A stretch of DNA of 64,000 bases, from IMG/VR virus record IMGVR_UViG_3300037225_000932, positions 109,352 through 173,351 of that record. One strand, written 5' to 3'. Positions within the stretch are counted from its first letter, which is position 1; each line of letters opens with the position of its first letter. Under the pieces are notes generated by a model. The model did no database searches. It was not told the DNA's origin and worked only from the letters and a program-made list of their open reading frames with translations. The DNA comes from a virus. This document shows, piece by piece, positions 12,440 through 35,642 of the stretch. The position numbers and the translations under genes were made by a program.

Positions 12440-12648
12440 TCTATAAACAGAGACACCCTCATATATTTTCTTCTAATCTCTTTCCCAAGAAAAAAAGAAG
12501 AAAATGAGGGTGATGGGAAATAGAGACTTTTTAATTGACCGTAGGAGACTCGAACTCCTATATCCACCTTAATATTCGGTGGCGTCTTACCAAGTTTAAA
12601 CGAACGATCTGGTCTCTACTCTCTGTGCCTTACGGCATTCATTAGTAT
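12440..12648 (-). ncRNA. family-1 RNA K1 with embedded tRNA-like domain (12536-12609)
   Basis: Promoter 12655; P1 ACAGAGA/TCTCTGT; T-arm AGGAG-TTCGAGT-CTCCT; pseudoknot TTTCCCA/TGGGAAA; 3' CTGTTTATAGA. Confidence 0.75.
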
Positions 12649-13295
12649 ACTGCTTTAGAACTTTCTTTTAAATTTCAGGGAGAAATTGTTGATCTCTATT
12701 ATATCGAATATTTAACCACTCTATAAGATGAAAAGCCTCAAAAAGAGTAAACCAATGAAGAGGAAAAGAGTGCGTCCAAGCATTATCTGAAGATAAAGTT
12801 TGATCAGTAGCTTTTGCCCTGATGATTATAACCATACCATCAGTATTATCTTCATAAAATCCTGGACCACAAATGTATACTCTTTCTCCGCAAAGAGTAT
12901 ATTTATACACAAGACCGACTGTAGTAGTTTTCATCTTTTATCCTACTTTCAAGATTTTAGAACTTTATCTATTTTATCAGGGTATTTTTTGCGCAAAAAA
13001 ATATCCTCAAGGTGGTGGCACCATCCTCAAGGATATATTTTGTTTTTCTCGGGGCCTTACTTTAGGCTCTCGGGGTTAAGTAGGACACCCTGAGCAGCCA
13101 TGTCAGCCCTGAATGCCTCCCGATTGACCGGCGGATTAAGGTGCTGAGCCAGCTTCTTCGGCTTCTCAGGGATGATATACCCAACTCCGCTCGTAAGAAC
13201 CCGAACACCCTTACCCTGCCGATGGCCAAATTCTGTCATCATTTTCGTATCCCTTTTCTGTTAGTGGTGCTATTTTAGAACTTTTAGTTGTTTTT

Positions 13296-13493
13296 TCAGG
13301 GAGAAATCGGTTGAACCATATTAAAAGTTAAATATTGGTTCAAAGCAGGATTGTCTTTATCATTAACGGGATCACCGTTTTCATCTTCATAATCAACTTG
13401 ATCGCCAGCCACAAACTCCTGATTAACCCAATTTCCAACTTCAGAGTTAAATGTCTGAACAACGAAACCAGTTGTGATTTTCCTGATCTTCAT
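13296..13493 (-). CDS. hypothetical protein (paralog of 51233..51415)
   Basis: Shared KI..GFV.Q.F..E.G..V.Q.F.AG....YEDE.G..V and MVQP. Confidence 0.75.
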   Translation of the reverse strand: MKIRKITTGFVVQTFNSEVGNWVNQEFVAGDQVDYEDENGDPVNDKDNPALNQYLTFNMVQPISP

Positions 13494-13550
13494 ATTAGTA
13501 TCCTCTTTCGGTGCTGTTTTAGAACTTTATGAAGCTTTTCAGGGAGCAAC

Positions 13551-14033
13551 TTACCATTTCGCTCCCATCTCTTTAGCCTCATCAAAAGCATTCCAGAACT
13601 TAAACTCTTTATTAGTAAGAATGCTAATGGCTTTCTCAGCATCCCTCTCAGTAAATCCAACATCCTTATTAGTTTGGACAAAATGCCTTAAAACTAAATC
13701 TTTCTTAATAGTATCATCCTTGGGATTAAAATCATCTAAAGGCCAATCATCAAGAACAACCCAGTTCTCAGGTTTATTTTGCTCAACCCAAAACAAAATC
13801 TCATCTAACCGATTACCGTTATCAGAAGTTATTCCAACAAAAGGAATATCAAAAACCTTAAAAACATCTTTTACCTGTTGAAGTGCGTTTGGCAGTGTTC
13901 GCCAAGTTGAAGAAAGAACTACAGAAGCATTCCCCTTTGAACAAACATTTTTAAGTAATCCTAAACGAATAGGATCAAGAGTTTGCCCATCTAGGCATAA
14001 TACTCCATCAATGTCACAAAATATAACATTCAT
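13551..14033 (-). CDS. HAD-family phosphatase (RNA-repair 'Swiss army knife' type); leaderless start at 14033
   Basis: FCDIDGVL, VLSSTWR, VVLDD motifs. Confidence 0.85.
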   Translation of the reverse strand: MNVIFCDIDGVLCLDGQTLDPIRLGLLKNVCSKGNASVVLSSTWRTLPNALQQVKDVFKVFDIPFVGITSDNGNRLDEILFWVEQNKPENWVVLDDWPLDDFNPKDDTIKKDLVLRHFVQTNKDVGFTERDAEKAISILTNKEFKFWNAFDEAKEMGAKW

Positions 14034-14821
14034 ATTCATTTAGAACTGTATTTAATTTTTCAGGGTAAATGAATTTAAGTTTGTGGTAAAACAACATTAG
14101 GCCAAAACAAAATGATAAAATAAGTATCATCTTTAGTATCAGCATAATGCCATTTCCCATCAGAAATAGTTTCTAAATATTTTTCTTTTATCACTTCTTT
14201 TCCATCAATTGTTAAAAACTTAAAATCAGAAAGATAGGAAGAAAGATAAGAACCAGAAAAAATACCAACCGGAATATGATCTTCGTGATTTGTTCCTTCT
14301 TTGGTGATAAGAAACATTTTATTCACCTTTCAAATCAGGCAAAAGATATCTCTCAATAATCTTAGCATCTTGCTCTTTACGGGAATAAATACCAAGAATA
14401 GCACTTTCACCAAAACAAGTAATAGAAGGAGATTTAGTGGGATTAGTTTTATCCCAACAAACATCAACCTTTCCAGCCCCAAGAACCATCTTTCCGTAAG
14501 ACAGGTTGGCAATATCTTTATGATTTAGATCGCCAGGAAAAATGATAGGGATATCACCTTCAAGAATAATGTATTTTGGAAACATAATTATTGTCCACGA
14601 AGAGTTTTTACATAATCAACAATTTCTTGTTTTTCTTTTTCGTATTTTTCTCTTGGTGTTCCCAAAAAGGCCCAGCCTTTTTGTATCCAACTTGCTATTC
14701 TTTCTGGAGACCATTTACCTTTATACAAACCGCCTTTGTTTGTCACAATGTCTTTTATGAATTGTCGAGTGTTATCGTTCATACTGATTTAGAACTTTAT
14801 TTAGATTTTCAGGGCAAAAAA

Positions 14822-15172
14822 CTATTTTCTAAGCAAATAAAAACAAGGAGATTCAGGTGTTCCTCCTGCTGGAATCCATTCCTGCCATCCTAGCCTGCGA
14901 AAGAAATTCGCAAATCTTGGGGTTTGAACGTTTTCCACAAACAGGTTTCCCGGATAAACATCTTGAACAAATGACAAAAAACGAGTAAATCGTCCTTTAC
15001 CTTGTTTCTTCACAGATATAGTGGCGATATCTAAAATGTCAATCATCTTAGGAGGATATCCTAAATATCGCCTACTCTTACGAATGTAGACATCAACATC
15101 TTTATCGTGTAACCAAGAATTACGCTTTTGAATATTTAGAAAATCAACCAATTGTTCTTCTACTAATTTCAT
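14822..15172 (-). CDS. GNAT-like acetyltransferase
   Basis: LDIATISV..QGKGRF motif A and FFRRLGW. Confidence 0.55.
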   Translation of the reverse strand: MKLVEEQLVDFLNIQKRNSWLHDKDVDVYIRKSRRYLGYPPKMIDILDIATISVKKQGKGRFTRFLSFVQDVYPGNLFVENVQTPRFANFFRRLGWQEWIPAGGTPESPCFYLLRK

Positions 15173-15476
15173 GATCTTTTAGAACTTTCTATTAAAAATC
15201 AGTGATTTTCTTATTATTTCTTGCTTATTTCAATAATGGTATCAGTTATCTCTTTATCAAGAGATTGAAACGTAACAAGATCACTTTCAACATCAGAGAT
15301 CCTATCCCTAATTCGATTAAGAAATAAAATAACCGAACTTACAGGAACCGCATCAATAGGACCACCAGTTGACCAATAAGTGTGTTTTTCTAAAATATCT
15401 TTAGTAAGCATCTTGTTTTCCTTTTCAGTGATAGATTAGAACTTTATTTCTTTTTTCAGGGCTTTTATTTTTGCGC

Positions 15477-15620
15477 AAAAAATAGTATCCGCCAGATATC
15501 GTGACGGATACTCTCAAGATTAGCAGTGTTTACTGGCGGAAGCTTAGTCTCACGGTTAGTCCCATTTCAGGATTCCCAGTAACTTAACTGCTTTATTTAG
15601 GAGCCAATAATTTGCTCCAA
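15477..15620 (-). ncRNA. candidate structured RNA L with alternative terminator pairing
   Basis: Promoter 15625; GGAGC/GCTCC, AGCAGT/ACTGCT and TTACTGG/CCAGTAA stems; terminator AGTATCCG/CGGATACT. Confidence 0.6.
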
Positions 15621-15726
15621 TTCCTTAGAATTTTCTATTAAAAATCAGGGCATTTATTTTTGCGCAAAAAAGAAATCACCCCCAATTGAGGGTGATTTCT
15701 TTTACTTTTGAACGATTTAATCGCTT

Positions 15727-16125
15727 TTAGGCGACAACCGTTTCATTCGTCGCCTCGACGGCGGGGGGAACTGCGGGAGTCTCAGCCGTCTTATTCTTCT
15801 CCTTCAACATCTTCGCAAGAACTGCCAACTGGTCAGGAGTCAAATTGAGATCATCCAACTTCTTCTGAAGAGCCAACTTGTCCTGCTCAGCCTTATAAGC
15901 CGGCAAATCGGTGACTTCAGCAAAAACCGGCAACGGCTCAACAACATAAACCCGACCATCAACCGGCTTTGAATTGAGATGATTCACCATTTCAATTCCA
16001 ACCTCCTTACTCTCGACCATCCCAAGAACCGTGCGAACCACCTTCATATTGCTACCCCGACCAGGTGCCTTAGTCGTGTGCTTCTCGAAAACCGCCAAAA
16101 CCGTCTTGCTCGACGCCGTGTCCAT
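15727..16125 (-). CDS. GRG-motif paralog family member 2 (start corrected to MDTASSK)
   Basis: PGRGSNMKVVRTVLGMV; leader nearly identical to that of 9574. Confidence 0.75.
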   Translation of the reverse strand: MDTASSKTVLAVFEKHTTKAPGRGSNMKVVRTVLGMVESKEVGIEMVNHLNSKPVDGRVYVVEPLPVFAEVTDLPAYKAEQDKLALQKKLDDLNLTPDQLAVLAKMLKEKNKTAETPAVPPAVEATNETVVA

Positions 16126-16364
16126 CGTCGTATCCTTTCCTAAAAGGGGTTTATCGTTACACCCTTTTAGAACTTTAGCCCCACTTTTCAGGGAGATTTT
16201 TTTTCGCGCAAAAAAAAATACCCTCAAAGACAACAGTGGTGGTGTCGTCCTCAAGAGTATTATTGTTTTTTTAATATAATAAATTGCTAACGCAATTTAT
16301 TATATTAAACTTTTTATGTTTTGTCAATATACTTTGTTCTATTTTGTTAAAAATAGTTTAAGTT

Positions 16365-17084: not shown

Positions 17085-18625
17085 ATCTAAGTCCCTTGTT
17101 TCTCAACCACTTATGTTATTTTTTCGCAAGAAATAAAAAACTTTTCCACACGGGTAAAAAAAAGTTTTATCTACTTCTCTTTAGGACCAATCTTATACTC
17201 AGAAGGAACAAATTTATGCCATAGATTACCAGCCTGCTTAAAGATAGTAACCCTCTTTGGAGACTTAATAATAAATAAAGTCTCATCTTCATTCGCTTTT
17301 ACATCAAAATCAGCAATTTGCGCAACAGAATATCCAGCATTCTGATACATCGTGATAATTACACACGGAATACCTGCCGGATCAACTCGATGATTTTTCA
17401 TGTTTTTTACCTAACCTCTTGGAAAATAAACCACTTAGGTAATTTTTTTCGCAAGATTAAAAAACTTTCTCCCGACGTAAAAAGATATCTTTAGAAACCA
17501 ACAATGTCAGCCAAACTAACAGCAAAAAGCTCCTTAGCGGTCCACCCCTCTATAGCAAAATCACTATTATTGACTGTAATATCGCTTAAAACAACGATAT
17601 CATGGTCCGGACCACCCATAAACTCGAAAATACCTTCCCTGCCAGACCAAAACGGATGACCACTCTTAACCTTATACTTCTCACCTTTAACCAGCTTCAT
17701 GATAATCTCCTTAAATTCTTTATTTTATAGGAACTTAGATTAAAAAATCAGGGAAAGAATAAAAACTTTTCCACACGGGTAAAAAAAGTTTTATGCTGCT
17801 ACAGAAATACCAGTTTCAACCGTTTGGTGGATAACAATGGTGCCACCCTTATACCGATAAGGCACATTCGCCTTCAAAGTCTCAGCTAAACCAACCAAAC
17901 CATACTTCCCAAGCCACCAATTAACATATTCGGCAGCTTCAGTAAGGTCCAAACAAACCGGACTCACCACTTCACCATTCTCGTAAACCTTAAACATCTT
18001 AATTTCCTTCCTTTTCTTTGTTAGTGTTACTTCTTTAGAACTTTATTTCCCCTTTCAGGGAAAACTTCAAAGAAGTTTTACCTTCAGTTAGGGAAAACTT
18101 TAATCTTCTTGACTAATAATGTAATAAATAAATAATGAAACTAAGAACATAACAACTAAAAAAACTTGAGGCTCTTGAGTTTCCATAACCTTTTTCTCTA
18201 TTTTTATCTAACTCCAGTAATTTCAGTGGCTTACGTTAATTTTTTCGCAAGAATAAAAAAACTTTCTCTCGACGAGAAAAGACATCTTTAACCCTTACGA
18301 ATTTCTAAATTTAAGTTGATCCTAATAACCCAATACTCCACTCCCTCTTTCATTACATAAATACCATGCCACTTACCATCTAAAATCAATTCTTTTGACT
18401 GTTGAGACCGAGATCCCCAATCACGCCCATCTATACTAGCAAATGGATACTTTTCACATAAAACTTCATAATCGTAAACCCCAATAGGCATATTATTCTC
18501 AAACGTTACTAAAAACATGATAGTCTTGTCCTTTTCTTCGTTAAGTGCTTTATTTCTCAAGAACTTAGATAAGATTTTCAGGGAGAGAATAAAAACTTTT
18601 CCACACGGGCAAAAAAAGTTTTATC
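17085..18625. repeat. local repeat family (CTAA..CTTA inverted pairs, TTTTCGCAAGA, AAAACTTTTCCACACGGG hairpins)
   Basis: Copies at about 17085-17170, 17410-17490, 17760-17793, 18200-18287 and 18591-18624. Confidence 0.75.
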
Positions 18626-18629
18626 TCTT

Positions 18630-19070
18630 CAGTAAGTTAGATAATTAAAATAGATATCAGGGAGAAATTAAACCAATAATGAAAAAACTAAGTTTGAAAC
18701 GAAACGGCGAGAAAAAAAATGGTGGGAGGGGGAAAAATGAGGAAGAGGACAGAGATTAGAGAAAAATGGAGAGGAGAATAAAGATGAGAGGACACCTGAG
18801 CTTTTTTAGGGACACAGTGGGTAAAATACCTACACCTAAGCTTTTTTACTAACACAATGGGTAAAATGAGGACGTAATAGGCTTTTATTTAAGCTTTTTT
18901 ATGGACATTCAGTGTCATTTATACCCAGGTTAGGACATCTTAGGACATTTATTCTCATCTTTAGACATCTTAAATAACATTTTATTTCAATTATTATTAA
19001 AATATAGAAAAGTGGGGCAGAGTGGGGAAAAATGTATTTACAGGGATTTAGAGCATTTACAAAGACGGAT
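18630..19070. other. long non-coding, purine-skewed region with direct repeats (candidate origin/packaging site)
   Basis: ~35-bp direct repeat ACACCTRAGCTTTT..ACACARTGGGTAAAAT and several GGACAT/GGACAC. Confidence 0.4.
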
Positions 19071-20413: not shown

Positions 20414-21547
20414 TTTTATATCTCTTTATTTGTAATAGAGTTATATTTTTCGGGCAAAAAATTATTTAGCAATTAGTGGGACAGTTGTGATTTTGTATTT
20501 AGAAAACTCAAAGGAATTATAGAATGGACTAATGTTAAAATCTTTATAGATAAAACCATATTTATTAATTTGTGCAGCATAATGAGAATTAAAGTGGCAA
20601 ATGAGGAAACTTTCAAAAGCATTATACCATTTTCTGCCTGTTTCTTCATTTTCTTCATTTATTTGTTTACAAGACAATTTCCAAGGATCAATATTTTCTT
20701 TAATATGATCTGGATGAGATTGTCCGGGCTTCATTTTTGGTTTTAGTGGTAATTCTTTACAGGGATCAGGATTATTTTGCTTCCATCTTTTTGCTTCTTC
20801 TTTTAGACCATTAAAAATTAGACTTACTACTTTATCTTTTTCTAAAAGAAAAGCAAGATGATCATTTGCTTCTTGTTCGGTGAGACAAGCAGCAATAGGG
20901 TCTGAAGTAATATAATAATCTTCATCACTGAGCCGACAAACTAAATAAACATTAGACATAGTTAATAAATCCTTTTAAGCCGCTTCAATATCAATTGAAT
21001 TAGCGGCATTAGGGCGAACAACAATTCTATTATTAGCAGAGATAGAGATTGTATTATCTTTCTTAAAAGTCAAAGAAATATCAAGGTATTTTCCGTTGGG
21101 GAAAAGGATCTCAATATGGCCGGAGAAAACATTAAGTTCTTTGCCTTGACCGGGATAGTGAGAATTATCAAAAACCTTAATTTGTCCTGATTTATCTTCC
21201 ATTTCAATTATCCTTTCTATTACATTAGAACTTTAATTTAAATCTCAGGGAAGTGAGCATTCAGAGATATTTTCGATACAAAACTTATTAGGGCAAACAT
21301 TAGAAGAAAGTAAAGAACCGCAAGACGGGCATTCATTGTCGAAAGAAACTCCGCAAGGAAAATCCAAGAAAGTAGTAAAGAAATCTTTCAATGAATTTCT
21401 TATATCTTTTCTATCTTGTTCATCTGAAGGTTCAGGAAGTCCGTCAATAGTAATAGTTTGAGAGCGGATTCCAGCAGCAAGTTCGGCAGGAGTTGTAATA
21501 AAGGCTTTCATAATATAGACTTAGAACTTTATTTAATTTTTCTGGGC

Positions 21548-21752
21548 AAATAAAAATACCTTCAAAGGCGATCACTTAGTTCGTCCTCAAGGGTATGATC
21601 GGAGCCGCTCTATTTGCTCTATCTTTTTATTAAAATTAGAAGTCAGCGAAACCTTTATGGTTCATCTGTTGCCCACCTAGGTTTGGCAGAGCAGGGTGCC
21701 CATAACTATTTCAGGTTTTAGGTTATGCTCGGTTGCCCAGCACTTGACTCCG
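21548..21752 (-). ncRNA. candidate structured RNA M (~200 nt)
   Basis: Promoter 21758; closing ATCGGAG/CTCCGAT; two TGGGCAAC motifs; terminator. Confidence 0.6.
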
Positions 21753-22490
21753 ATGCTTTAGAACTTTATTTTAGATTTCAGGGGGCTTATTGGGATGTTC
21801 TAATAATTCAATTCGGTGACCGAGATAAGGAAAAAGTGTAAAGGTTAAAATAATACCAAGTAATAGTTGTAATAAATATGGTAGCATATTAACAACAAAA
21901 AATACCAATACAATAATTAAATAGCCACCTAATATCCATATTGGCACTACTATTGTCAAACCTAAGAGATTTTGTAGCCATTTTCTTTTTACTTTATCAA
22001 TACAATTAACCATACATTTTGGCAAGAAAAAAGGCCAAAGATAAAAACAAATACAAGGAAAAAGCCAAGTTATTTGTATGAGTGGGTCGCTGATATCTAT
22101 GTTTTTATACATAATTTCTCCTTTTTATTTTTGCGCAAAAAAAGTCCCACCCGTTCTGGTCTCAGGTGGGACACTTCAGGAGGCGATCAACAAGTCGCCG
22201 TTGCGTAATTAACCCTGTATCTCGTAATTCTTTACTCCAAGTTCTCTAAGGTGTTGTCGCAAAATGGCTTCTGTAAGAAAGTCTAATTTACCAAAATAAA
22301 ACAATTGATCTAAAGTGTCTTCTATTTGTCTTATTTCAGTTTTTAATTGGTTTTCTTGTTTCACGTTCATAATATTCTATTAGAACTTTATTATTTTTAT
22401 CAGGGCTTTTATTTTTACGCAAAAAAAATCCCCCTACTCGTCTGGCGAATAGGGGGACGAAAGGAGGTTCGCTAAGGAGCCTCATGAACA

Positions 22491-23090: not shown

Positions 23091-23133
23091 CTTCGTTTTT
23101 CCTTTATTAGTGTTAAACGATTAGAACTTTTTA

Positions 23134-24405: not shown

Positions 24406-25044
24406 TTTTATTACTCCTTCTTTGTTAAAATCTTTTATCTTTATTTAATTTTTCTGGGCGAAAAAATATTACTTCTTTTCCGTCTGATACAAGACTTCTT
24501 GAGCGAAAGCAAGTGCAGCGGAAGCAGAAGTGGAATAACCACAAAGAAAATGTTGAGGAGCAGAAGATTTTGCCCCAGTAGTAGGCATCCCTGTCTTTTC
24601 ATCAACATAACAAACATAATAGTTGGTCAAACCACTTTCGAGAATACGGAGAATACAACCAGACATAAATCGCTGTTCTAAACAAACTCGATAATTACAA
24701 ACTGGTGTATTATTCTTTTTTTCTTTTGCCTCATTTAAACTATCAATCGTTGAATAACCATATAAAGCAGTCAATGCTTCATCTAAAGTTTTAAACCAAT
24801 GAGCCCAAGATCTCCATTTGTTTTCGGGATGAAAATAAGAAAACACATCGAAATTACTTTTCTTCATAATATAATACTGAAAATTCACGCAATCATTAAG
24901 ATTGTATGCCTTCTTCGGCCCGGAAATAGTGACGTTTTCTCCACCAAATTTAAATTCCATCTTAAATCCAACAGAGCTGTTCATTGTAAATTTCCTTTGT
25001 GAATTATAGATTTACATTTTTATTTAAGTTTTCAGGGTAAATAT

Positions 25045-25306
25045 ATCTATAAACAGAGACACCCTTAAATATTTCATCTTCCTACCAGAAGATTACTTAT
25101 TAAGGGTGTGGTAGTAGAAAATCCTTTTTCGAGCATCATGGGGGACTCGAACCTACCCATTACCCGGTTTAAACCCGGGTCTCCGACCATTAGAGGAACG
25201 ATACCAAAAAGATTTTCTATCTCTGTGCCTAAGATTACTTTGTTGTCCCATCATATTTTCGGGATCATAAACATTTCATCATCGGCTATTCTAATACTAG
25301 TTTAAC
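25045..25306 (-). ncRNA. family-1 RNA K2 with embedded tRNA-like domain (25131-25205)
   Basis: Promoter 25313; P1 ACAGAGA/TCTCTGT; GGTTCGAGTCC T-loop; pseudoknot CTACCA/TGGTAG; 3' CTGTTTATAGA. Confidence 0.75.
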
Positions 25307-25651
25307 AATCTCTTAGAACTTTTAACTATTTTTCGGGGCAGATTTTTCCATTTCCCTAATTTTATCGTAAAGACACTGAAAAAAATTCATAACACTAACG
25401 TGGGTTTCACCTTCCTTTATATGTCTTTCAATCCTAATCATACCAAAGCTAGAAGCATAATCGACAAACTCTAAAAAGAAAAGATCATCTTCCTTTCTTA
25501 GATAAAGAGTATATCCATAAAGATCATGGTTATCATCTGTGTCTCTAAAGTTCTTAAAATATACTCCATCAAATCTCTGATCAAAGCCATCCCCCTTAGC
25601 AGTTTCAAGAGAAAATGAAACAAAATCAGCGATCATTTTAATTGTCCTTTT

Positions 25652-26029
25652 TTAGTGCTCGCTTGGCAGAAGCAAAACATACCGATCGCCCGACCCCTCA
25701 ACATACAACTTGATACTATTCAAAGGAAAATCAGAATATTCAATTTCCTGCGAAACAACAGGAGTTTCACCAGTATCAGCCCGACAAGTCAATAACCAAG
25801 TATTATTAGGCTGCTTGGTCAACTCCCAAAGTTGAAACCAATCTAACTTCTTTTGAGCGGTCTTTTGGTGACTGGCAATCGCGTCAATTAGCCAATATGC
25901 CCCAGCATTTTCGGCTAAAACCTTAATGCCATCAGTGTAAACAAAATTACGACAAAAAGAATGACGATAATAATGTTCAGTGCAATTACAGTAGGCTAAA
26001 AGATTTTGAAGTTCAGTAGCAGAAATCAT
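25652..26029 (-). CDS. DUF6876-family protein
   Basis: YTDGIKVLAENAGAYWLIDAIASHQ and QEIEYSDFPL motifs. Confidence 0.75.
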   Translation of the reverse strand: MISATELQNLLAYCNCTEHYYRHSFCRNFVYTDGIKVLAENAGAYWLIDAIASHQKTAQKKLDWFQLWELTKQPNNTWLLTCRADTGETPVVSQEIEYSDFPLNSIKLYVEGSGDRYVLLLPSEH

Positions 26030-26350: not shown

Positions 26351-26424
26351 TTGGCCCGGCTGGATTCAAACCAGCGACCCGACCGCTATAAACGATCCGC
26401 TCTGATCAACTGAGCTACGGGCCA
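26351..26424 (-). tRNA. tRNA-Ile(UAU)
   Basis: Cloverleaf; anticodon loop TTTATAG; T-loop TTTGAAT; no encoded CCA. Confidence 0.8.
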
Positions 26425-26489: not shown

Positions 26490-27017
26490 ATGAAAATTAT
26501 TAAATGTTTACAATGTTCAAAAGAGTTTAATGTGGAAAATTATTGTAATCGTAAGTTCTGCTCAATGTCGTGTGCTGGACAATATAATAATTTAGGACGT
26601 AATAAAAAAACAATTAAATGTAAAAATTGTGACACTTTAATTATTTCAGGAAGAACTTATTGTCCAAATTGTATTAAACAATATAAACATATTACAAATC
26701 GTATAGATAGTGATAGAACTCTTGCTGAGATGTGTAGCTATAAAAAAATGGACGCTAATAGATTTAATTCTATCAGAGAACACGCATCAAGAATTCTTAA
26801 AAGTAAAGGAAAACCATGTGAAAGATGCGGATATTCCATACACGTTCAAGTTTGTCATATAAAACCTATAAGTCAATTTCCAAAAACCGCATTATTATCA
26901 GAAATAAACGCCTTATCTAATTTAATTTTATTATGCCCTAATTGCCATTGGGAATTTGATCATGGTATTATTACTTTAGAACAAATTAGAAAATCATTAA
27001 CAGACGATCTTCTTTAA
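26490..27017 (+). CDS. HNH endonuclease with N-terminal Zn fingers (free-standing, in tRNA region)
   Basis: CERCG..HVQVCHIKP..NLILLCPNCHWEFD. Confidence 0.85.
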   Translation: MKIIKCLQCSKEFNVENYCNRKFCSMSCAGQYNNLGRNKKTIKCKNCDTLIISGRTYCPNCIKQYKHITNRIDSDRTLAEMCSYKKMDANRFNSIREHASRILKSKGKPCERCGYSIHVQVCHIKPISQFPKTALLSEINALSNLILLCPNCHWEFDHGIITLEQIRKSLTDDLL

Positions 27018-27559
27018 CCCTTTAATGAGAGGGAATAAACGGGGCTTCAACGCCACAAAGCCTCAAAATCCAACAAACTAGAGCGCAGGGAATTGCGAAT
27101 TGACCCAGAAATAGACCGCAAATAGCATCAGCATACCAAGGGATTTCTTTACCTAAAATTGAGAATAAACTATAAGCGAAACAAAGACCGCCAATAGTCA
27201 CATTCAAAATCAAAATCATAACGAAACAACCGCAATAACCAAAACAAGCACTGGCCGCTTCTGAACCATTTAATTTACTCATTTTTATTTCGTCCTTTAT
27301 ATTATTAAGTGTTTAGATTAGTAAATTATTTTTTTAGGAGAGAAGTTAGTAATTGGTATTATATTTCTTATTTACTTTATCTACTATATTTTTGTCTTTT
27401 TTTCTTGCTATTTCATTTTCTACTTCGCCATAACAATTCATACATAAAAGATCACATTTTGCCCACTCTTTTTCTATTTCTTCTAAACTTCTTGACCATA
27501 ATTGGTCTAAAGATAAACCGAATAATTTTTTATCTTTTTCTCTAAGATAAAAACTTTAA

Positions 27560-27632
27560 TGGGACCGGAGGGAGTCGAACCCTCGACCAATAGCTTAAAA
27601 GGCTACTGCTCTACCTACTGAGCTACAGTCCC
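27560..27632 (-). tRNA. tRNA-Lys(UUU)
   Basis: Canonical cloverleaf; loop CTTTTAA; GGTTCGACTCC. Confidence 0.92.
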
Positions 27633-27635
27633 AAA

Positions 27636-27750
27636 GCGCTTACCTGTAAGATGATTTTACGCTCAACTATTGCAAATCATTGAGGATATTGTAGATTGCT
27701 ATTTCTACACTTTTCGTCAAATCATTTAGGCTCTCCTTGGGTAAGCTATT
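27636..27750 (-). ncRNA. structured leader RNA co-transcribed with tRNA-Lys
   Basis: Promoter 27754; GCTTACC/GGTAAGC closing stem; two internal hairpins. Confidence 0.5.
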
Positions 27751-28164
27751 CTCTTAGAACTTTATTTACTTTTTCAGGGGTTTAACTACATCAATCTTAG
27801 ACCAATTCATTTTCTCTTTCATTTTTACCACTTTATAGAAGTCAAGAGGTGAAAGTTTCTCAGTGATAAATAACTTTTCATTTTCCGTTTTCATTTTAAC
27901 GTTTTCCATTTTTGTTATTTTCCTTACATTCTCTTAGAACTTTATTTACTTTTTCAGGGAAAAGTTGTTTTCTTATTGATCTGGAGCTTTCTTAAAATCA
28001 TCAGGCAAACCGGCATCTCTTAATTCTTGACGAATTAATTGGTCAATATCTATAGTTATCGCTTTTTCTTCCCAATGGCTTATATCACACAAGCCTAAAA
28101 CATTCTTTACTATTTTTTAGTCAATTTCTCAACAAAATCTTCTTCCATAAATCACCTTTTTGCG

Positions 28165-28232
28165 AAAAAAAAGAAAAAGTCTAGCAGATTGGGTTCCTAT
28201 CGAGCCGATAAACGGCACCAGACTATTTCTTA
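28165..28232 (-). ncRNA. candidate ~65-nt three-way-junction RNA / terminator
   Basis: Promoter 28238 lies inside the upstream gene end; AGTCTGG/CTAGACT stem plus U run. Confidence 0.35.
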
Positions 28233-30969
28233 TTAACTTAGAACTTTCTTAAAATGTTCAGGGAGGCCAGCATTTTTTAATTCTTCTCGTATTGTTCGAG
28301 CCATATCTTCTCGCATTTGACAATATCCTCTCCAACTAAAATCAAGACCATGATCCTGAAGTTTATGTCTAACTACATTATCGCAAAGACATTCAGATAA
28401 AGCCTCAGCGAAATCTTTATCTTCCATTTTATTTATCCTCTTTCTCAAGGTTTTCTTTCAGTTTCATATTATCAGCTTTATTTTTTAGATTATACAAGCA
28501 ATTTTTAGTGCCATTAACAAATCGGCCCTTTTTGCCTCCATGTAATTTAGAAGGTCTATTTCTATCTCTTTCTTGGTGTTTAAGGCTTTTTACTTTTTGT
28601 TTTTCAGGTCTACTCTCATTCCACTTATCAAAGGTTGGATTACCGAGTGTCCAACCCTTTTCTTTATCAACGTGTCTACGGGTATCACTCATGTTTTTTA
28701 TTATCCAATTTAATAGCAAAAAATACCTTTTTCTATTTCTCTTAGAGCTTTATCCATTCCGTCTCTAAGATAAGTAAGAGTGTCACACAGGGCGTCACGA
28801 TCATCGCCTGGAATATTATCATGATAATTATTAAAAAATGATAAGTTTACTTTAGCTAATTCTATTTGTTTTTCAACAGCAGAAATAGCATTACGACAAT
28901 GTTTTTCAACCTCCGACGATAACATTTTACCTATCCTTTATTTGTTGCTTCAATTTCTTTTTGTTGTTTTTCAGTAGGAATACGATAATCAGTGACAACA
29001 GAATTAACTAATCCGCACTTATTACATCGCCTATGTTGAACCTTATCGCAAAAGGCGAAAGGTTCAGGAGTTGACCATTTTGACCAATTATGGAAAAACC
29101 AACATTTCATTTTATTATTCCTTAAAGGGAAACAGGAACCTTTCCCAGCAAATCGACCAGCATATTGATAAAATCAATTTCGTAAGTTTCCTTGCTATAC
29201 ATATCCCAGAGGCCAGATTGATATCTACGATAAGACAAGATGCCTCCCTTGACGCACCAATAGCCAATACCTGTCTTGCCTCCTGGGGGTCCACCTTCAT
29301 CGGCGGGAGCGGGGATAAACTTATGGGGAGGATGAGCATCTAATTTAGCACTAAATTCTTCTTGCTTCTTATGACGATCATCGGCCATCTTATTAATTAC
29401 ATCGCACCAACCCATATAATCGCTCATAGTCTTATCAGGATCAGGATACTTGTCTGGAACGTCCTTTTCAATCTTCTTAGCCATTTTTTTTGTTCCTTTT
29501 GTTGCTATTTTAGAACTTTATTATATTTATCAGGGCAAAATAATTTCAATTTCATCTACAGCAACGAAAATATGACCAGCTAAATGGGCGGCATCAAGAT
29601 TAATTCTAATAGGAGTATGATATCCTTCTGAACAAACATCATCAATCTTGCCAGTTTCGCCGATAAATTCTTGTCCTAAATCGGTTAGATGACCTCTCTT
29701 TATCCTAATCCTATCTCCGATTTCAAGTAAAACTCCTTTTCCATCAATAATCTTCATATATTTATTCCTTTTGTTTTATTGTTTTGAGATATCCAATTGG
29801 TTCTAATTATTCACCATTAGCAGCATCAATCCAACCATCGTTCCATTGCCTCCACTCTTCAGTTTCCTTTTGATAAGGATTTTGAGTTCGTCGCTTATCC
29901 TCACCAAAAGCATTATAGCCTTGTTCATACGCATTGTCCATTACTACTTACTCCAAAAAAATGTTAAAAATCTCTTTTCTTACTATCTTTAGAACTTTAT
30001 ATTTTCTTCGCAGGGAGGAAATTACTTATATTTCTCGTTTAGGTTTTTCTCCAACCTTAATCATAATAACACTCCAAAGAAGCCAAATATACCAGGGAGA
30101 CCCAAACCAATAATAATCGCCAACACAACAAGAGAAATAATCATTTTATTTTTCCTTTATGTTAGATTTTTTTTCGCAAAAAAAATTAAAGTCCTTTTCT
30201 TACCGTTCTAATGCTATTTTAATGAAAGCAGCACAGGCAATTAAGAAACTATCGTGAAAATTGCTTTCATTAGAAGTAAGAGGATATCCATCTGCTCCAT
30301 CTACATATCCAGCATAATACTTTGTTGGACTTACTTCTAATATTCGAAGAATAGTGGAAGCCGTTTGATGCTCCCCACAAATCCGATAATTACAAGCATA
30401 CTTAATTGGCTTCTTTGCCTTTTGGATTTTTTCATTTTCCTTATTAATAACTTCTCTTGCCTGCTCAAAACTATCAAAGTAATAAATGTCTTTCGTCCAC
30501 TTTCCATCCTTATTCATAAACTCCATCTTATAAGGATCTCGATAAACGTGAACCTGATAGTTAAGGAAAGTATTTTCTCTTCCATGAAACCTTCCCACCG
30601 AACCAGAGAGAAAAACAAGCTTTCCGTCTAATGCAACATTATATTCTTTTTGAACGGTCTCATTATGACCAAAAAGAGCCCTACAAACTTCATTTACAGA
30701 ATTAAACCAGTGAGCCCCGGCTGGCTGCCATTTTCCGTTAAAAGTAAGATAGTAAATATAGCCATCTATTTTCTTCCAACCATAATACTTGTAATTATTC
30801 TCTTCAGAAGCATATTCAAAGGGAGTGTCAATACCGGCAATATGAACCGTTTGACCATCAAATTCAAAAGACACATCAAATCCGACAGAGCTTTCACGTG
30901 TCATTTTAGTATTCCTTATGTTTAATATCTTAGAACTTTTATGCTTTTCTCAGGGGAAAATTATTAGTT

Positions 30970-31740
30970 TTATTTCCATATCATATCAAATACTTTTACT
31001 AATAAATCAGTTGCTTCTTTATCATCAACTCTATCCGGCAAAACAGAAGTGTCTAAAACTTCTTTAAGTCTTTCTAATCCTTTACCAATATCATCTACGC
31101 ACTTTTGTGTATCATTCTTATCATAAGTAATACCATTTCTAATATTCAAAAGATTTTGAATATCTGGCCGTGGAAAAGTAATTTTGCCAGTTTTTAACAA
31201 TTCTAAACCTTGAGCCGCAATTCTAAAGGCGTGCATTGCGAACTTCGTATCAAAACCCTTTTCTTCAGTAATGTATCGTCGTCCAGTTTTATTACTCTGT
31301 TTAATTAAAAGTTTATTCATTTGAGAATGTGAAAATCCGTCAAAAGAAAAATAAACTTTACGACTTAAAAGTTTTAATCCTCTTTCTCTTAACAAATTCC
31401 ACAAAACATTTTGAAAAACAATACAATTATCTGGAACAAAAAGAGTTTCAATGACATTAGGATTACAGCCATAAATGAGTTTAACCCATTTTCTAACATC
31501 ATAGAAATTGACTTCTGAATTAAATTGTTCAAATCGTTTTTGCCAACAATCAGGAATCTCACCAGTTATCCATTTGGAGCGTGGTGAATAATAAATTAAA
31601 ACATAATCATGATCACTTGTCGGAAGTGAAGTTCCATACATTTGAGAACCAGAAGTATGAAAAAGAAGAATATTATTTAATATCCATTCTTGTCCATCAG
31701 AAATTAGTCTATCAGTTAGACTTTTAATAGTTAGAGGCAT
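30970..31740 (-). CDS. predicted nucleotidyltransferase (Nuc-transf/RlaP-like)
   Basis: GSQMYGTSLPTSDHD, CNPNVIETL, FDTKFAMHAFR motifs. Confidence 0.85.
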   Translation of the reverse strand: MPLTIKSLTDRLISDGQEWILNNILLFHTSGSQMYGTSLPTSDHDYVLIYYSPRSKWITGEIPDCWQKRFEQFNSEVNFYDVRKWVKLIYGCNPNVIETLFVPDNCIVFQNVLWNLLRERGLKLLSRKVYFSFDGFSHSQMNKLLIKQSNKTGRRYITEEKGFDTKFAMHAFRIAAQGLELLKTGKITFPRPDIQNLLNIRNGITYDKNDTQKCVDDIGKGLERLKEVLDTSVLPDRVDDKEATDLLVKVFDMIWK

Positions 31741-32067
31741 TTTTACATTTCACTTTTAATGCGAAATATTTTTTTCGCAAAATAAAAATCTAATTTACGC
31801 TGCATAAAATGGAAGCTTTTTATCGCTTTTTGAAAATCGACAAGGTTTCCAGCTTTGATCGGCTCCCTCAATGAAAAAGCGATTACTACTATCTCTTCCG
31901 GTAATAAGTAGTGCCTTATTCTTTCTGCCGTTAGGATCTCTAATGACAACAATATAACAATTGGCATAAGACTGTAATGGAAGCGGGCTATAAACACCAG
32001 GAAGTTCCATTATTTTTTTCCAAGTAAGAGTTGTTTGTTCAGAAGGTGTCATAATTTACTCTAAAAG

Positions 32068-32139
32068 TATCCCGTAGGAGGCTCGAACTCCTGTTTTCGG
32101 CGTGAAGGGCCAATATCCTAGCCACTAGATGAACGGGAC
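32068..32139 (-). tRNA. tRNA-Glu(UUC), with C at position 33
   Basis: Cloverleaf; anticodon loop CCTTCAC; T-arm AGGAG-TTCGAGC-CTCCT. Confidence 0.85.
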
Positions 32140-33140
32140 TTTTCTATTGTCTTTATATCTTTAAGTAAAAATTCGGGGCAAAAATAAAAACTCTTTTTAC
32201 ACATTCGATCCAACGCAAAACATTGGACTATCAGCAAATTCGTTATTTTCATAACTCTTTAGTGCTTCTAATCGAACAGAATGAGGAATACAAGCCCAAC
32301 GAATAAGCTTGCCATCTGGATTGATTTTAACTGAACCTACTTTACGGGCAGAATTAGTGCCGACCATAAGCATAATAGTTCCGGTAATTGAACAGTCTCT
32401 TTGTTCTTGGCCTACTTCAAAGAAATATTCATTACCCTTATATTTCCAAGCATTAGATGATCCATTAGGATCGGTGATAGCTTTTAAGATTTTATCTTGA
32501 CAACGAGAAGCAGCACAAGTGCATGAGTAACCCATTTTATTATCCTTTATATTTTTTAGATTTAATTAAAGACCAACTATCTATTCCAATCTCTCTTTTA
32601 TTCAACCATAAAAAAGAACATAACAAATATCATTCAAGGTTTTAGTTAGTCCGTTTTTCCAAATGCCTAGAAATGCTTTGCCCATCATAATACAAATCAA
32701 AAAACATAGAACTAAACTCAGAAACAAAAGTAAAAAAATAGCAAAATAATAAAAGAGCCATCCAACAGAAACGAGTAGTGCAAGAGAAAATATTCCCACA
32801 AGAAACTCTTTTGACGTATTAGTGAAATTTTTCGCAATATTCATTTTATTATCCTTTATCATTCAGAAGGTAATTCAAAAGGTAATTCTTTTTCAATAAG
32901 AAAACATTGTGTTTTAAGATCTTCAATTCGCCGAAGGAAATCTTTCATTTCAGGATTATCGGATAGTCCCTCATAATTAGCAAGATTAAATCTGGCAAGG
33001 TTAATAAGTTTTCTTGCCTCAAAAAGAGTATGTCTGGTTGAAATTTTAAGGTCTTTAAGGTATTCAAGGTCTTTCATTTTACTTACTCTTTTTAGTAATA
33101 TAGATTTATATCTTTATTATTACTTTTCAGGGCGAAAAAA

Positions 33141-33644
33141 TTATAGAAGTTCAAGTTCATCAGGGCTAAAATGAATATGCCAACGAGTAGAAGTAAGTTC
33201 TATCTCAATCGTTTTAGTTTTATTAAAACCATTATTGAGACTAACTACTTTGCCAGTCTTATTGTTCCAATAATCATTAGTGTGAGCTTTAACTTTATCT
33301 CCAACTTTAAAATCTCCAACTTTAAAAGTCTTACTAACAATCTCAGAATTATCATTATTTAAGATGCCTGCTTCTAAAAGAGCATAATAGCAGGACTTAG
33401 GGATTTCTAGTGTCTTATATTGAAAGTCAAGAGAAGTAATTTCTATTTCGCTAAAATAAAAATAATGTCCATTAATATCAACTTTAAAACTATAAGACTT
33501 ATTAGGATCAATTTTGATAACCGTCCCAAAAGTCCCCCATTTCTTATCATTATCAGGAAAAGTCCATTTTGCTTGAACTTTAGTTCCCACAATAATCTTT
33601 GAGGTTTTAACGCTTTTGACTTTAATGACGAGTTTCATAGTCAT
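33141..33644 (-). CDS. tandem KOW/SH3-like domain protein (paralog of 35677..36174)
   Basis: VGTKV and FKVGDKVKA repeats; shared GILN linker. Confidence 0.55.
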   Translation of the reverse strand: MTMKLVIKVKSVKTSKIIVGTKVQAKWTFPDNDKKWGTFGTVIKIDPNKSYSFKVDINGHYFYFSEIEITSLDFQYKTLEIPKSCYYALLEAGILNNDNSEIVSKTFKVGDFKVGDKVKAHTNDYWNNKTGKVVSLNNGFNKTKTIEIELTSTRWHIHFSPDELELL

Positions 33645-33745
33645 GTCCCTTATGTTTTATTTTACATCTTTATGATTATTTTCTGGCAATAAGAAATCGT
33701 CCCGTTAAGGGCGATTTCTTTAACTTTTGAAGGTTTTAACCGCAA

Positions 33746-34183
33746 TTAGGCGGTAAAAGCTTCCTCAGTAGCGGGGGCAGTAGTTGCCTCTGGAGCCGGA
33801 TTAGTTGCCGGAGTTTCAGTCGCGGGAGTGGAAGTTTCGGCCTTGGCTTCCTTCTTTTCCGCAGCCTTCTTTTCCTTCAGAAGATTGGCCAAAGCAGCCA
33901 ATTCCTCAGCAGTAAAGTTAGCAATCTTCTCCGCCACGGCCGCTTTAGTCTGCTCATCCTTATAAGCAGGCAGGTCGGTAATTTCCTCGAAAATAGACAG
34001 AGGTTCAACCGCATAAGTCTGTCCCTCTGTCGCCTTAGAATTAAGATGTGCAACCAGCTTAGTTCCGGTTTCATCATCCTTGACCATCCCGATTACAGTT
34101 CGAATGGTCTCACTTCCTCGCCCGACCTTACGAGTTCGCCGTGCCGCAATCACCTTAACCGTCTTCTCAGTCTGCGTGTCCAT
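33746..34183 (-). CDS. GRG-motif paralog family member 3
   Basis: RKVGRGSETIRTVIGMV..HLNSK..TDLPAYK shared with 15727. Confidence 0.8.
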   Translation of the reverse strand: MDTQTEKTVKVIAARRTRKVGRGSETIRTVIGMVKDDETGTKLVAHLNSKATEGQTYAVEPLSIFEEITDLPAYKDEQTKAAVAEKIANFTAEELAALANLLKEKKAAEKKEAKAETSTPATETPATNPAPEATTAPATEEAFTA

Positions 34184-34281
34184 TTCTCATTTTCCTTTAT
34201 GTTAGAGGTTTTGGACGACGCTTTCTTAGAACTTTATGGTCAAATTTCGGGGAAGAGAGGTCTCTTCTCTACCGTCTAACA

Positions 34282-34788
34282 CTATGCGGCTGTTAAGACA
34301 GGTAGGTTATAGGCATATTCCCGACTAACTGCTTGAATTTTATTGTTATCAAATTTCAAAAACTCATTTCTATCTTTTGCCCACCAAGGCTCAACTGCTT
34401 CTTTTATAACTTCAATTTCAGAACCAGGGTATCTATTAGACAATCCTATAACTGTAGCAGCAACACATTGATCAAGAAACATTCCACAAACAATAAAGTT
34501 TTGAGGTAAATCTAAGGATATAATAATTTTTTGAATTTCAGGACTTCCGTCTCTAATTGATTTTGTAGCGGAATATAGATAGGGATAGTTTCTGAAAGTT
34601 TTTCTTAAAAGAAGATGAGTAGGACCATAATTTTCATATTCCAAAACAATAATAGGAATACTATTTATGATCGCATAAGAAGCTAATTTTGCACATTCTA
34701 TAATACATCTGGTAAAACGTTTTTTAATTTTAGAAGGAAAAAACTTAGACTGAACATCTATTATAATAAGAGTTTTATCAGGGCTCAT
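34282..34788 (-). CDS. isochorismatase/cysteine hydrolase family protein
   Basis: LIIIDVQ and CGMFLDQCVAAT motifs. Confidence 0.8.
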   Translation of the reverse strand: MSPDKTLIIIDVQSKFFPSKIKKRFTRCIIECAKLASYAIINSIPIIVLEYENYGPTHLLLRKTFRNYPYLYSATKSIRDGSPEIQKIIISLDLPQNFIVCGMFLDQCVAATVIGLSNRYPGSEIEVIKEAVEPWWAKDRNEFLKFDNNKIQAVSREYAYNLPVLTAA

Positions 34789-34804
34789 ATCTCGTCTCTT
34801 TATT

Positions 34805-34910
34805 AAATAAAAAATCCAGGGAGAATAAAGAAAGATATAGAAACTCTGGCGAGTTTACACGGTGATCCGGTGACCGATTTTTGTCTTTCTGCTTATTCTA
34901 CCTGGAAATT
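34805..34910 (-). ncRNA. intergenic three-way-junction RNA / terminator
   Basis: TCCAGG..AGAATAA..AGAAAGA pairs with TCTTTCT..TTATTCT..CCTGGA; two inner hairpins. Confidence 0.4.
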
Positions 34911-35489
34911 ATTAGAGTTCAACGATTAACTTACCGAAATCTTCTTTAACAACAACATTCCTAAATCCACCAGAGCCAAACAATTCACGATTATAGCAAG
35001 TTGTGATACTCCTTATAGGGCTAGACGCTTTAATACAAACAAGATATCCATACGCTCGATACCAAATATCTCCCATAGTATCAGAAAAAACATTACCAAT
35101 CTCAATCTGTTCTGCTGTCTCAGGTTTCTTACTGTTCTTCAGAAAAAGCTTCATTTTATTGTTCCTTTATTTAGTGCGAAAAAAAATTATTCTTCAACAA
35201 CAAGCTTACCTAAAACCCTAGAAGCAATAATAGAATAAAAAAGACTACTATTGTCCCCTAAAATGGGTTGTAATAGGTTAATGCCATTATCACCATCTTT
35301 AAGAGGAATAAGACAATAATCTCCTCTAATAAAAACATTTCCATCTGGAGTTTCAAAAACATCTCCAACATCTAAACTAGAAGCGTAAATGATACTTTCT
35401 GGGTCTTGTTGAATTTTAATATTCATTTTATCGTTTCCTTTCTTATCTAGTGTTAGATTTTGTTTATATTTTTCAGGGAAAAATATTCT

Positions 35490-35642
35490 GTTTCTATAAA
35501 CAGAAGAACCACCGATTTATCTTTTCCAGGATCAGTGGAAAAGCCGGTGGTCGATCCTTGTTAGAGAGTTACTATCTTCATTATTTAGCAAATCTCTAAA
35601 CTCTTCTGTCCCAGCTTTGCGACCATTTCTGGTATCTGGGAT
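35490..35642 (-). ncRNA. family-1 RNA K3 (simple hairpin in place of the tRNA-like domain)
   Basis: P1 ACAGAAGA/TCTTCTGT; pseudoknot GGATC/GATCC; 3' CTGTTTATAGA. Confidence 0.7.

Follow-up and report, generated by a model that had tools for sequence, protein, structure and literature searches.

Three structured RNA elements of one phage share a constant core and a variable arm, which is tRNA-like in two of them

YrlA (RF02553) is a tRNA-like Y RNA of bacteria and phages (PMC4201824). In M. smegmatis, RNase P cleaves YrlA into two halves, which are both recovered with Rsr, and the RNA receives CCA (PMC4201824). The RNAs GOLLD and ROOL are found near tRNA islands, are rich in pseudoknots and are of unknown function; GOLLD forms cages and sometimes holds tRNAs covalently embedded in its variable region (PMC12286853). 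Here we describe three elements, K1, K2 and K3, in a 64-kb stretch of phage DNA (the window), which is the right-hand part of the 173,351-bp IMG/VR virus record IMGVR_UViG_3300037225_000932 (CheckV completeness 88%, GC content of the phage genome 30.6%). All three lie on the minus strand, the coding strand of their region. Our analysis confirms, far beyond chance, that they are structured elements and the three members of one family, in which a core is kept constant and one arm varies; in K1 and K2 this arm ends in a tRNA-like cloverleaf. Positions are those of the window unless the genome is named.

A first-pass annotation of this DNA had placed K1 at 12440-12648 and K2 at 25045-25306 and had assigned one layout to all three copies. 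The elements are present at these positions, K3 being bounded here at 35493-35640, and the common layout is recovered for each copy by unconstrained minimum free energy (MFE) folding. It consists of a 5′ hairpin abutting the helix P1, a three-way junction of P1, P2 and P3, a linker of 6-10 nt between P2 and P3, P3 itself, the 3′ strand of P1 and a tail. Compared with dinucleotide shuffles the MFE z-scores are −4.2 for K1, −3.6 for K2 and −3.9 for K3, and in a helix-by-helix check of the coordinates every proposed pair of the three elements is a standard one. The parts are listed below, with the analysis by which each was delimited in brackets.

12440-12648, minus: K1 RNA, whole (MFE fold with z −4.24, helix table)
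12626-12637, minus: K1 5′ hairpin UGCC-GUAA-GGCA with a GNRA loop, abutting P1 (MFE fold, helix check)
12620-12626, minus: K1 P1, 5′ strand ACAGAGA (7/7 pairs)
12447-12453, minus: K1 P1, 3′ strand UCUCUGU (helix check)
12520-12619, minus: K1 P2 arm, with base helix GUAGAGAC/GUCUCUAU, internal loop and tRNA-like cloverleaf (MFE fold, helix check)
12535-12610, minus: K1 tRNA-Glu-like domain without CCA; the T arm is perfect and the anticodon loop, GAAUAUUAA, has 9 nt (RF00005, ARAGORN in relaxed mode)
12514-12520, minus: K1 linker UUUCCCA (helix check, chance test)
12454-12512, minus: K1 P3, with an 8-bp lower stem, a 3′-side UAUA bulge and a 9-bp pyrimidine/purine upper stem (MFE fold)
12481-12487, minus: UGGGAAA within the 21-nt loop of K1 P3 (MFE fold, helix check)
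12440-12446, minus: K1 tail UUAUAGA (invariant motif)
25045-25306, minus: K2 RNA, whole (MFE fold with z −3.60, helix table)
25227-25286, minus: K2 5′ hairpin, long and imperfect, closed by GCC/GGC and abutting P1 (MFE fold, helix check)
25220-25226, minus: K2 P1, 5′ strand ACAGAGA (helix check)
25053-25059, minus: K2 P1, 3′ strand UCUCUGU (helix check)
25115-25219, minus: K2 P2 arm, a helix of about 15 bp that runs into the acceptor stem save for a 3-nt bulge, and the cloverleaf (MFE fold)
25131-25204, minus: K2 tRNA-Glu-like domain, with anticodon loop GUUUAAA (anticodon UUA), 3/5 pairs in the T stem and no CCA (ARAGORN, RF00005)
25109-25114, minus: K2 linker CUACCA, which pairs over its whole length with UGGUAG at 25082-25087 (helix check)
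25060-25108, minus: K2 P3, with a 9-bp lower stem, an internal loop, a 7-bp upper stem and the loop GGUA (MFE fold)
25046-25052, minus: K2 tail UUAUAGA (invariant motif)
35493-35640, minus: K3 RNA, whole (MFE fold with z −3.91)
35610-35640, minus: K3 5′ hairpin, its inner part ACCA-GAAA-UGGU with a GNRA loop (MFE fold, helix check)
35602-35609, minus: K3 P1, 5′ strand ACAGAAGA (8/8 pairs)
35500-35507, minus: K3 P1, 3′ strand UCUUCUGU (helix check)
35561-35599, minus: K3 P2, a plain hairpin without tRNA (MFE fold, ARAGORN, helix check)
35553-35558, minus: K3 linker AGGAUC, which pairs with GAUCCU at 35528-35533 (helix check, chance test)
35508-35551, minus: K3 P3, with an 8-bp lower stem, a 3′-side AUAAA bulge, an 8-bp upper stem and a 7-nt loop (MFE fold)
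35493-35499, minus: K3 tail UUAUAGA (centroid structure)

The helices are perfectly paired in all copies while most of their sequence is not shared. In the order K1, K2 and K3, P1 has 7/7, 7/7 and 8/8 pairs, the base of P2 8/8, 9/9 and 7/7, the lower stem of P3 8/8, 9/9 and 8/8 and the upper stem 9/9, 7/7 and 8/8. The pairs next to the junction are kept in sequence (ACAGAGA, UAGA.. and CACC..). P1 is ACAGAGA/UCUCUGU with one further A-U pair in K3, where the extra A in ACAGAAGA is compensated by an extra U in UCUUCUGU, and the base of P2, UAGAGA/UCUCUA, becomes UAGAAA/UUUCUA in K2, which is again compensatory. The sequence similarity of K1 and K2 is confined to a stretch of 37 nt at the 3′ end, and all that K3 has in common with them is the 12-mer TCTGTTTATAGA, which occurs exactly three times in the genome (173 kb). 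The sequence of P3 is wholly different in each copy; its form is kept. Its two stems are separated on the 3′ side by an A/U bulge or loop that hinges P3 (UAUA in K1, GAAAUAU in K2, AUAAA in K3), and the upper stem has, but for one terminal pair each in K2 and K3, a 5′ strand of pyrimidines and a 3′ strand of purines. GNRA tetraloops cap the 5′ hairpins of K1 (GUAA) and K3 (GAAA). The tail UUAUAGA that follows P1 had been called invariant, and it was indeed found, as a single strand, in all three copies. In K3 another hairpin of 7 bp, UCUGUUU/AAACAGA, is possible between the end of P1 and the tail, with AUAUUUUU after it, and the centroid fold prefers this alternative.

To judge the architecture against the genome, random 6-bp P1 candidates were used: 0.15-0.19% of them have a P2 of at least 7 bp, a P3 of at least 6 bp and a linker-loop pairing (PK) of at least 6 bp, the P1 positions of the K elements being among the matches at these thresholds and the copies being pooled. 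Overall such a layout is rare, with 0.15-1% of random candidates showing it. A descriptor of the bare topology is too permissive, with about 190 matches per strand in this 31% GC genome, and served only as a null. The first-pass annotation had spoken of full covariation. The compensatory changes between the copies are real, but they come from only three paralogues in one genome.

It had also been proposed that the linker between P2 and P3 is complementary to the apical loop of P3, with another sequence in each copy. This is the case: K1 has 7/7 pairs (UUUCCCA/UGGGAAA), K2 6/6 (CUACCA/UGGUAG) and K3 6/6 (AGGAUC/GAUCCU), the last being one pair longer than the GGAUC/GAUCC originally given. The chance of finding such a complement is 0.015-0.07 per copy. 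Pairing within one molecule demands that P3 folds back on itself, as the linker is attached right below it, and the near-equal lengths of its lower and upper stems (8/9 in K1, 9/7 in K2, 8/8 in K3) fit such a contact with a linker at the base of the helix. The K2 linker has no spacer nucleotide on either side. From these models the pairing could also be intermolecular, in dimers or rings, rather than a pseudoknot.

The variable arm is P2. The cloverleaves that had been seen in P2 of K1 and K2 match the tRNA model RF00005 with 31 bits (12535-12610) and 36.1 bits (25132-25204), matches obtained with permissive filters and slightly over the gathering score of 29; the real tRNAs of the phage score 50-77 bits. 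As had been proposed, both are joined to the scaffold via the acceptor stem and both have intact D and T loops, the latter with the sequence UUCGAGU. The acceptor stem runs on into P2, and U8 and the GG of the D loop are kept. The plain hairpin described in this place for K3 is borne out by the MFE fold and by ARAGORN, and K3 has no tRNA match by Rfam or ARAGORN. The description of the anticodon loops as aberrant holds for K1, whose loop has 9 nt, but not for K2, whose loop is a normal one of 7 nt with U33 and the anticodon UUA. ARAGORN reports K2 as "tRNA-Stop (tta)" and K1 only in its relaxed mode, where two nucleotides of the 9-nt loop are taken as an intron. The K2 T stem has two mismatches (3/5 pairs), the K1 acceptor stem is of 6 bp with an A.A mismatch on top, and the two anticodon stems differ by compensatory changes (CCACC/GGUGG and CCCGG/CCGGG). 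Neither K1 nor K2 combines the free acceptor ends, the 7-nt anticodon loop and the regular stems of a functional decoder. Judged from these features both cloverleaves are probably incompetent in decoding, the acceptor ends being tied into P2 and CCA being absent. A function of K2 (UUA) as ochre suppressor was considered and rejected: TAA is the main stop codon of the phage and ends 115 of the 180 long open reading frames (ORFs) of the genome, which makes a functional ochre suppressor implausible.

In a comparison of all nine tRNA-like genes of the genome, the K1 and K2 domains are the best match of each other, and the next best match is the phage's tRNA-Glu(UUC), of which they are paralogues; thus, their common ancestor already held an insert derived from tRNA-Glu. 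The K1 T arm is identical at 24/24 positions to tRNA-Glu genes of Stenotrophomonas phages and at 20/21 to the phage's own tRNA-Glu. Two further observations concern short sequences in and around these domains. GTTTAAAC has only four copies in the genome (173 kb), including 12594, 25167 and 24054, and lies twice inside the tRNA-like domains at non-homologous spots, the D arm of K1 and the anticodon loop of K2. The tail with its preceding G (GUUUAUAG; 12441, 25047 and 35494) is identical to the anticodon loop of tRNA-Ile(UAU) plus one base of its stem (26386-26393), which may be a coincidence as this 8-mer occurs 14 times over both strands of the genome.

The statement that the elements belong to no known family also stands. 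When Rfam 15 was searched with the window at gathering scores and with each K element at E ≤ 10, only tRNA was matched. Models of riboswitches and other cis-regulatory RNAs gave chance matches of 12-28 bits against gathering scores of 39-100, and at E ≤ 10 no family of self-cleaving ribozymes (twister, twister-sister, pistol, hatchet, hammerhead, HDV-like) was found on the K elements, which also lack a CUGANGA box. The transfer-messenger RNA (tmRNA) model RF00023 has no match on them, the pRNA model none with cmscan, and the GOLLD and ROOL models none at gathering scores or at E ≤ 10. Relatives were sought as well. A blastn search of INPHARED (50,697 phage records) found no similarity to the scaffold and matched only the T arm of tRNA-Glu. 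The exact 14-mer TCTCTGTTTATAGA has at least 119 loci in IMG/VR, all due to chance among the matches listed, and two look-alike loci (L017 and L113) were rejected as coding sequence. Scans of viral, metagenome and GTDB contigs for the promoter motif described below gave none or single chance matches, and searches for related loci with the flanking and structural proteins found no relatives. A lookup of exact proteins recovered the same phage in three other assemblies, SRR23247752, SRR11568929 and JGI 3300037088, in which K3 is 100% identical. A covariance model made from K3 alone found no further member in the window and misaligned K1 and K2; MAFFT in turn misaligns K3 because of the 75-nt insert in K1 and K2. 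A published catalogue lists about 10,000 candidate structured RNAs of viruses (PMC10690425). From the modelled structures and these searches the K elements appear to be a real structured RNA family without a match in Rfam 15, so far limited to one orphan phage.

A comparison with the described systems shows where this family stands. YrlA is the nearest in design, since it is also a modular RNA with one module that is a non-decoding tRNA mimic with intact elbow contacts of the D and T loops. However, the YrlA mimic joins at the position of the anticodon stem and has an acceptor stem closed as a hairpin, whereas the K cloverleaves join via the acceptor stem, have the normal gene order and a free anticodon arm. 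In addition, YrlA has the Ro-binding motif GNCGAAN0-1G and a nearby Ro60 gene and the K elements have neither: none of the three contains the motif, and the Ro60/TROVE profile PF05731 has no match in the 173-kb record (88% complete), with positive controls. With no TROVE gene, no Ro motif and no match to RF02553 at E ≤ 10, an identity as Ro/Y RNA was rejected. GOLLD and ROOL are like the K elements encoded by phages (PMC12286853). Unlike them, they are multimeric cage formers of 500-800 nt and more with cores of their own, three to five times larger than the K elements, which are of 150-260 nt and contain a single three-way junction.

The other systems that come to mind resemble single parts of the design. 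The pRNA of phi29 (RF00044) has a core with a three-way junction and a loop complementarity which covaries among its relatives as the sequence drifts; this pairing is loop-loop and intermolecular, and the RNA, which lacks a tRNA module, binds the packaging motor of small podoviruses. The junction core and the covarying complementarity are thus shared with the K elements, the loop-loop pairing and the lack of a tRNA module are not. In mascRNA on MALAT1 and in the t-elements of plant mitochondria a non-decoding cloverleaf is part of a longer transcript, where it lies at the end and defines the terminus. In contrast, the K cloverleaf lies at the tip of a helix inside a closed structure, and K3 does without it. 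Riboswitches of the SAM-I type have a closing P1, a junction of several helices and one arm that is bent back, its loop pairing with a strand of the junction. The P1-closed junction and the pairing of a bent-back arm are found again in the K elements, but these have no kink-turn signature and no conserved nucleotides of a ligand pocket, and their P2 tolerates an insertion of 75 nt. In concept the family is a new variant on the theme of the scaffolded tRNA mimic, and it belongs to none of the known families compared.

The elements lie in a region organised as an array of small cassettes, each of which has the motif CCCTGA(A/T)AA-N5-ATAAAGTTCTAAA at its head. The window contains 64 strict copies of this motif (about 64-85 overall), in every case on the minus strand, and within the genome it is found only at 112,920-167,149 (window 3500-63700). 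When the first ATG of ORFs of at least 40 codons is plotted from the first C of the motif, there is a sharp peak at +32 (8 cassettes) and a second, broad one at +45 to +59. We read the motif as a putative promoter with a start at about +32; the ATG peak at this position in eight cassettes points to leaderless mRNAs, as many of the mRNAs would be. The −10-like TCTAA box, together with a sigma factor, encoded at 61360-62175, that has no regions other than 2 and 4, suggests a class of early promoters that would depend on the phage sigma factor. By this motif K1 and K2 would each stand behind an early promoter of their own:

12654-12680, minus: K1 promoter motif (CCCTGAAAT ... GTTCTAAA; consensus of the array), predicted start at about 12648
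25312-25338, minus: K2 promoter motif (CCCCGAAAA ... GTTCTAAG; consensus of the array), predicted start at about 25306

The 5′ ends given earlier for K1 (12648) and K2 (25306) coincide with the starts predicted by the +32 rule. K3 has no promoter motif of its own and sits directly 3′ of the ORF at 35677-36174. Each K element ends 8-14 nt ahead of the next promoter motif; the idea that the UUAUAGA tail is a general component of the promoter was rejected since it is absent from the consensus. The ordinary tRNA genes of the array (Ile, Lys and Glu) have the same promoter and no scaffold.

Several other features of the array were noted. Directly 5′ of many promoter motifs there is a T-run and then the palindrome TTTTTTGCGCAAAAA (for example at 4597, 4733, 5019, 7392, 7668, 7888, 12982, 16193 and 16826), which may serve many cassettes as a terminator in both directions or as the binding site of a protein. 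The window has about 25 gaps of at least 170 nt without ORF (for example 10905-11201, 15412-15726, 17998-18287, 18519-19070, 21512-21770, 27283-27765 and 29942-30199), and many cassettes have a promoter and no ORF, which makes additional non-coding RNAs likely. No protein partner common to the neighbourhoods of K1, K2 and K3 was found. The minus-strand ORFs at 12668-12934, upstream of K1, and at 24469-24984, downstream of K2, have a weak similarity at the N-terminus (38% over 21 aa, E 0.012), possibly a small domain in common or chance, and a DUF6876 protein (E 3e-40) is encoded on the minus strand at 25652-26029, two genes upstream of K2.

Genes of RNA repair are scattered across the early array and all lie on the minus strand: an Rnl1-type RNA ligase at 62373-63587, an RlaP nucleotidyltransferase at 30970-31740, about 330 nt from tRNA-Glu, and the HAD domain of the "Swiss Army Knife" (SAK) RNA-repair proteins at 13551-14039. 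RlaP extends damaged RNA ends with added nucleotides, and heavily damaged tRNA requires it to regain function (preprint 10.64898/2025.12.29.696909). The genome further encodes on the plus strand a full tmRNA (genome 25567-25943; RF00023 with 91.8 bits, ARAGORN tag ANTELALAA), adjoining a tRNA-Gln and a tRNA-Glu(CUC)-like gene, and a tRNA with the anticodon CUA (genome 45284-45358; RF00005 with 50.5 bits), which is an amber suppressor and is called "Pyl" by ARAGORN; TAG ends only 17 of the 180 long ORFs. Taken together, the tRNA-repair genes, the tmRNA and the suppressor tRNA mark the phage as clearly and heavily involved in a struggle over tRNA and translation. The HNH endonuclease encoded on the plus strand at 26490-27017, between tRNA-Ile(UAU) and tRNA-Lys, looks like an insertion of a homing endonuclease into the tRNA region. 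On the minus strand at 51728-52975 there is a TnpB-like gene with OrfB_IS605 and Cas12f1-like TNB domains and no adjoining transposase; as its flanks have nothing in common with the K elements, an identity of these as the omega-RNA of TnpB was rejected.

How might such RNAs act? The first-pass annotation had proposed that they might be decoys for anticodon nucleases, or precursors that RNase P/Z would turn into a two-piece RNA. Our preferred suggestion, put forward tentatively, is that the constant core is a platform for recognition and stability and that P2 presents an unchargeable tRNA mimic as bait, decoy or adaptor. The core would be compacted by the fold-back pairing, and some factor would bind to the conserved junction and the tail. 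P2 would be the display module, carrying in K1 and K2 a mimic that can neither be charged nor decode and that may bait a tRNA-binding activity, the likeliest target being a host nuclease or sensor directed at tRNA; K3 would display another, non-tRNA hairpin on the same core. We favour a role in a conflict over tRNA because the window encodes the Rnl1-like ligase, RlaP and the SAK-HAD domain of RNA repair, and since K3 has kept the core without a tRNA, the core is not merely an aid in tRNA maturation. A more specific form of the suggestion is possible though on the whole unlikely: the copy-specific linker-loop pair would be an "address" that locks the fold or drives orthogonal self-assembly, and the unchargeable tRNA-Glu mimic would be the bait that titrates or misleads a host defence directed at tRNA.

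Several observations weigh against the display of a tRNA mimic on a compact core. No Ro60 gene or other obvious gene of an RNA-binding partner was found. The anticodon loops (GAAUAUUAA and GUUUAAA) are unlike that of tRNA-Glu, so that a decoy for an anticodon-loop nuclease specific for tRNA-Glu would not obviously be served. An intramolecular linker-loop helix is sterically demanding; in K2, which lacks spacers, P3 would have to bend by about 180 degrees. No terminator that would define a 3′ end was found at K1 or K2; thus, the RNAs may be pieces of longer read-through transcripts. Finally, three paralogues in one orphan genome provide no independent phylogenetic covariation, the copies from the three other assemblies being identical.

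Other explanations have to be weighed against this suggestion. The elements could be processing cassettes with the cloverleaf as a t-element or precursor: cleavage at the acceptor stem by RNase P and by a 3′ nuclease would set free an unusual tRNA, either a UUA reader or one with a 9-nt loop, and leave a scaffold of two pieces held together by P1 and P2. The cleavage of the M. smegmatis YrlA by RNase P would be a precedent (PMC4201824). The K1 and K2 cloverleaves keep the stack of acceptor and T arm and the elbow, which are the features that RNase P recognises, an A/U-rich internal loop of K1 (2 nt by about 9 nt) coincides exactly with the position of the acceptor ends, and the real tRNA genes of the phage are likewise without encoded CCA. 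Nevertheless, K3 has the full core without a tRNA, so the core must have been selected for something beyond tRNA release, and the normal tRNAs nearby do without a scaffold. The details of the two cloverleaves are also unfavourable: in K2 the leader is paired up to the acceptor stem and the T stem has its two mismatches, and K1 offers its mismatched 6-bp acceptor stem where a stem of 7 bp is a major determinant for RNase P (PMC4201824). An ochre suppressor released from K2 would moreover read through the commonest stop of the phage. We regard such processing as rather improbable. Somewhat less probable to us is self-assembly by intermolecular linker-loop pairing, which is compatible with the display of a mimic and would yield homodimers or rings with an orthogonal "address" and with the tRNA modules exposed, by analogy similar to phi29 pRNA or to the cages of ROOL and GOLLD. 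It would relieve the strain that the missing spacers of K2 put on the intramolecular version, and it fits with the linker and loop sequences, which differ per copy and are mutually exclusive; the 6-nt palindromes in the "anticodon" loops of K1 and K2 (AAUAUU and UUUAAA) could kiss, and GOLLD cages are sometimes found with covalently linked tRNAs (PMC12286853). On the other hand, the near-equal stems of P3 suit an intramolecular fold-back, palindromes are common in loops made of A and U only, the elements are small beside cage formers of 500-800 nt, and the Rfam searches gave no similarity to pRNA, ROOL or GOLLD.

A function in cis, as a riboswitch-like aptamer or a processive antiterminator that controls read-through into the next cassette, is doubtful. 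The short distance of 8-14 nt to the next promoter motif and the lack of terminators at K1 and K2 would agree with it, as would the K3 P1 3′ strand, which overlaps the centroid-preferred alternative hairpin followed by AUAUUUUU. But the genes downstream have their own promoters and are mutually unrelated among the three loci, the alternative hairpin exists in K3 only and contains two G-C pairs, and hardly any unpaired nucleotides are conserved, which leaves little for a ligand pocket. Very improbable is a micro-peptide encoded by the 3′ segment (MRVSLFIDMFTLKN in K1 and MKYLRVSLFIDIFTLKT in K2) with the purine strand of P3 as ribosome-binding site. ATG frames of 14 and 17 codons do span the P1 3′ strand, the tail and the next promoter motif, but K3 offers a GUG frame only, all three codon differences between K1 and K2 alter the amino acid, and the "conserved" C-terminus is the promoter motif; the complementary P1 5′ strand and the compensated insertion would be left unexplained. 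It is just as hard to believe that the elements have no function as RNA and are dispersed DNA repeats, for example remnants of mobile elements with inverted termini and a captured tRNA gene, the fold being incidental. P1 is indeed an inverted repeat, and weak ATAGA motifs resembling direct repeats flank K3. Yet the interiors are fully diverged while four helices and the linker-loop contact are perfectly paired, and all copies are co-oriented with transcription, two of them with a promoter of their own.

Thus, we prefer the suggestion that a constant core displays a tRNA mimic in K1 and K2 and another hairpin in K3. GOLLD and YrlA show that non-coding RNAs with tRNA look-alikes are recurrent in phages, and the function of the phage-encoded ones is not established. 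The design of the K elements is small and modular: the core is constant, the arm can be exchanged, and one genome holds three natural variants, one of which is free of tRNA; these variants provide a ready experimental series on what a displayed tRNA mimic does in infection. If the linker-loop pairing is an orthogonal code of assembly, the core would be of interest to RNA nanotechnology. And if the more specific suggestion is true, the platform with its tRNA-Glu mimic would be an RNA-only anti-defence device that acts alongside the tRNA-repair enzymes of the phage.

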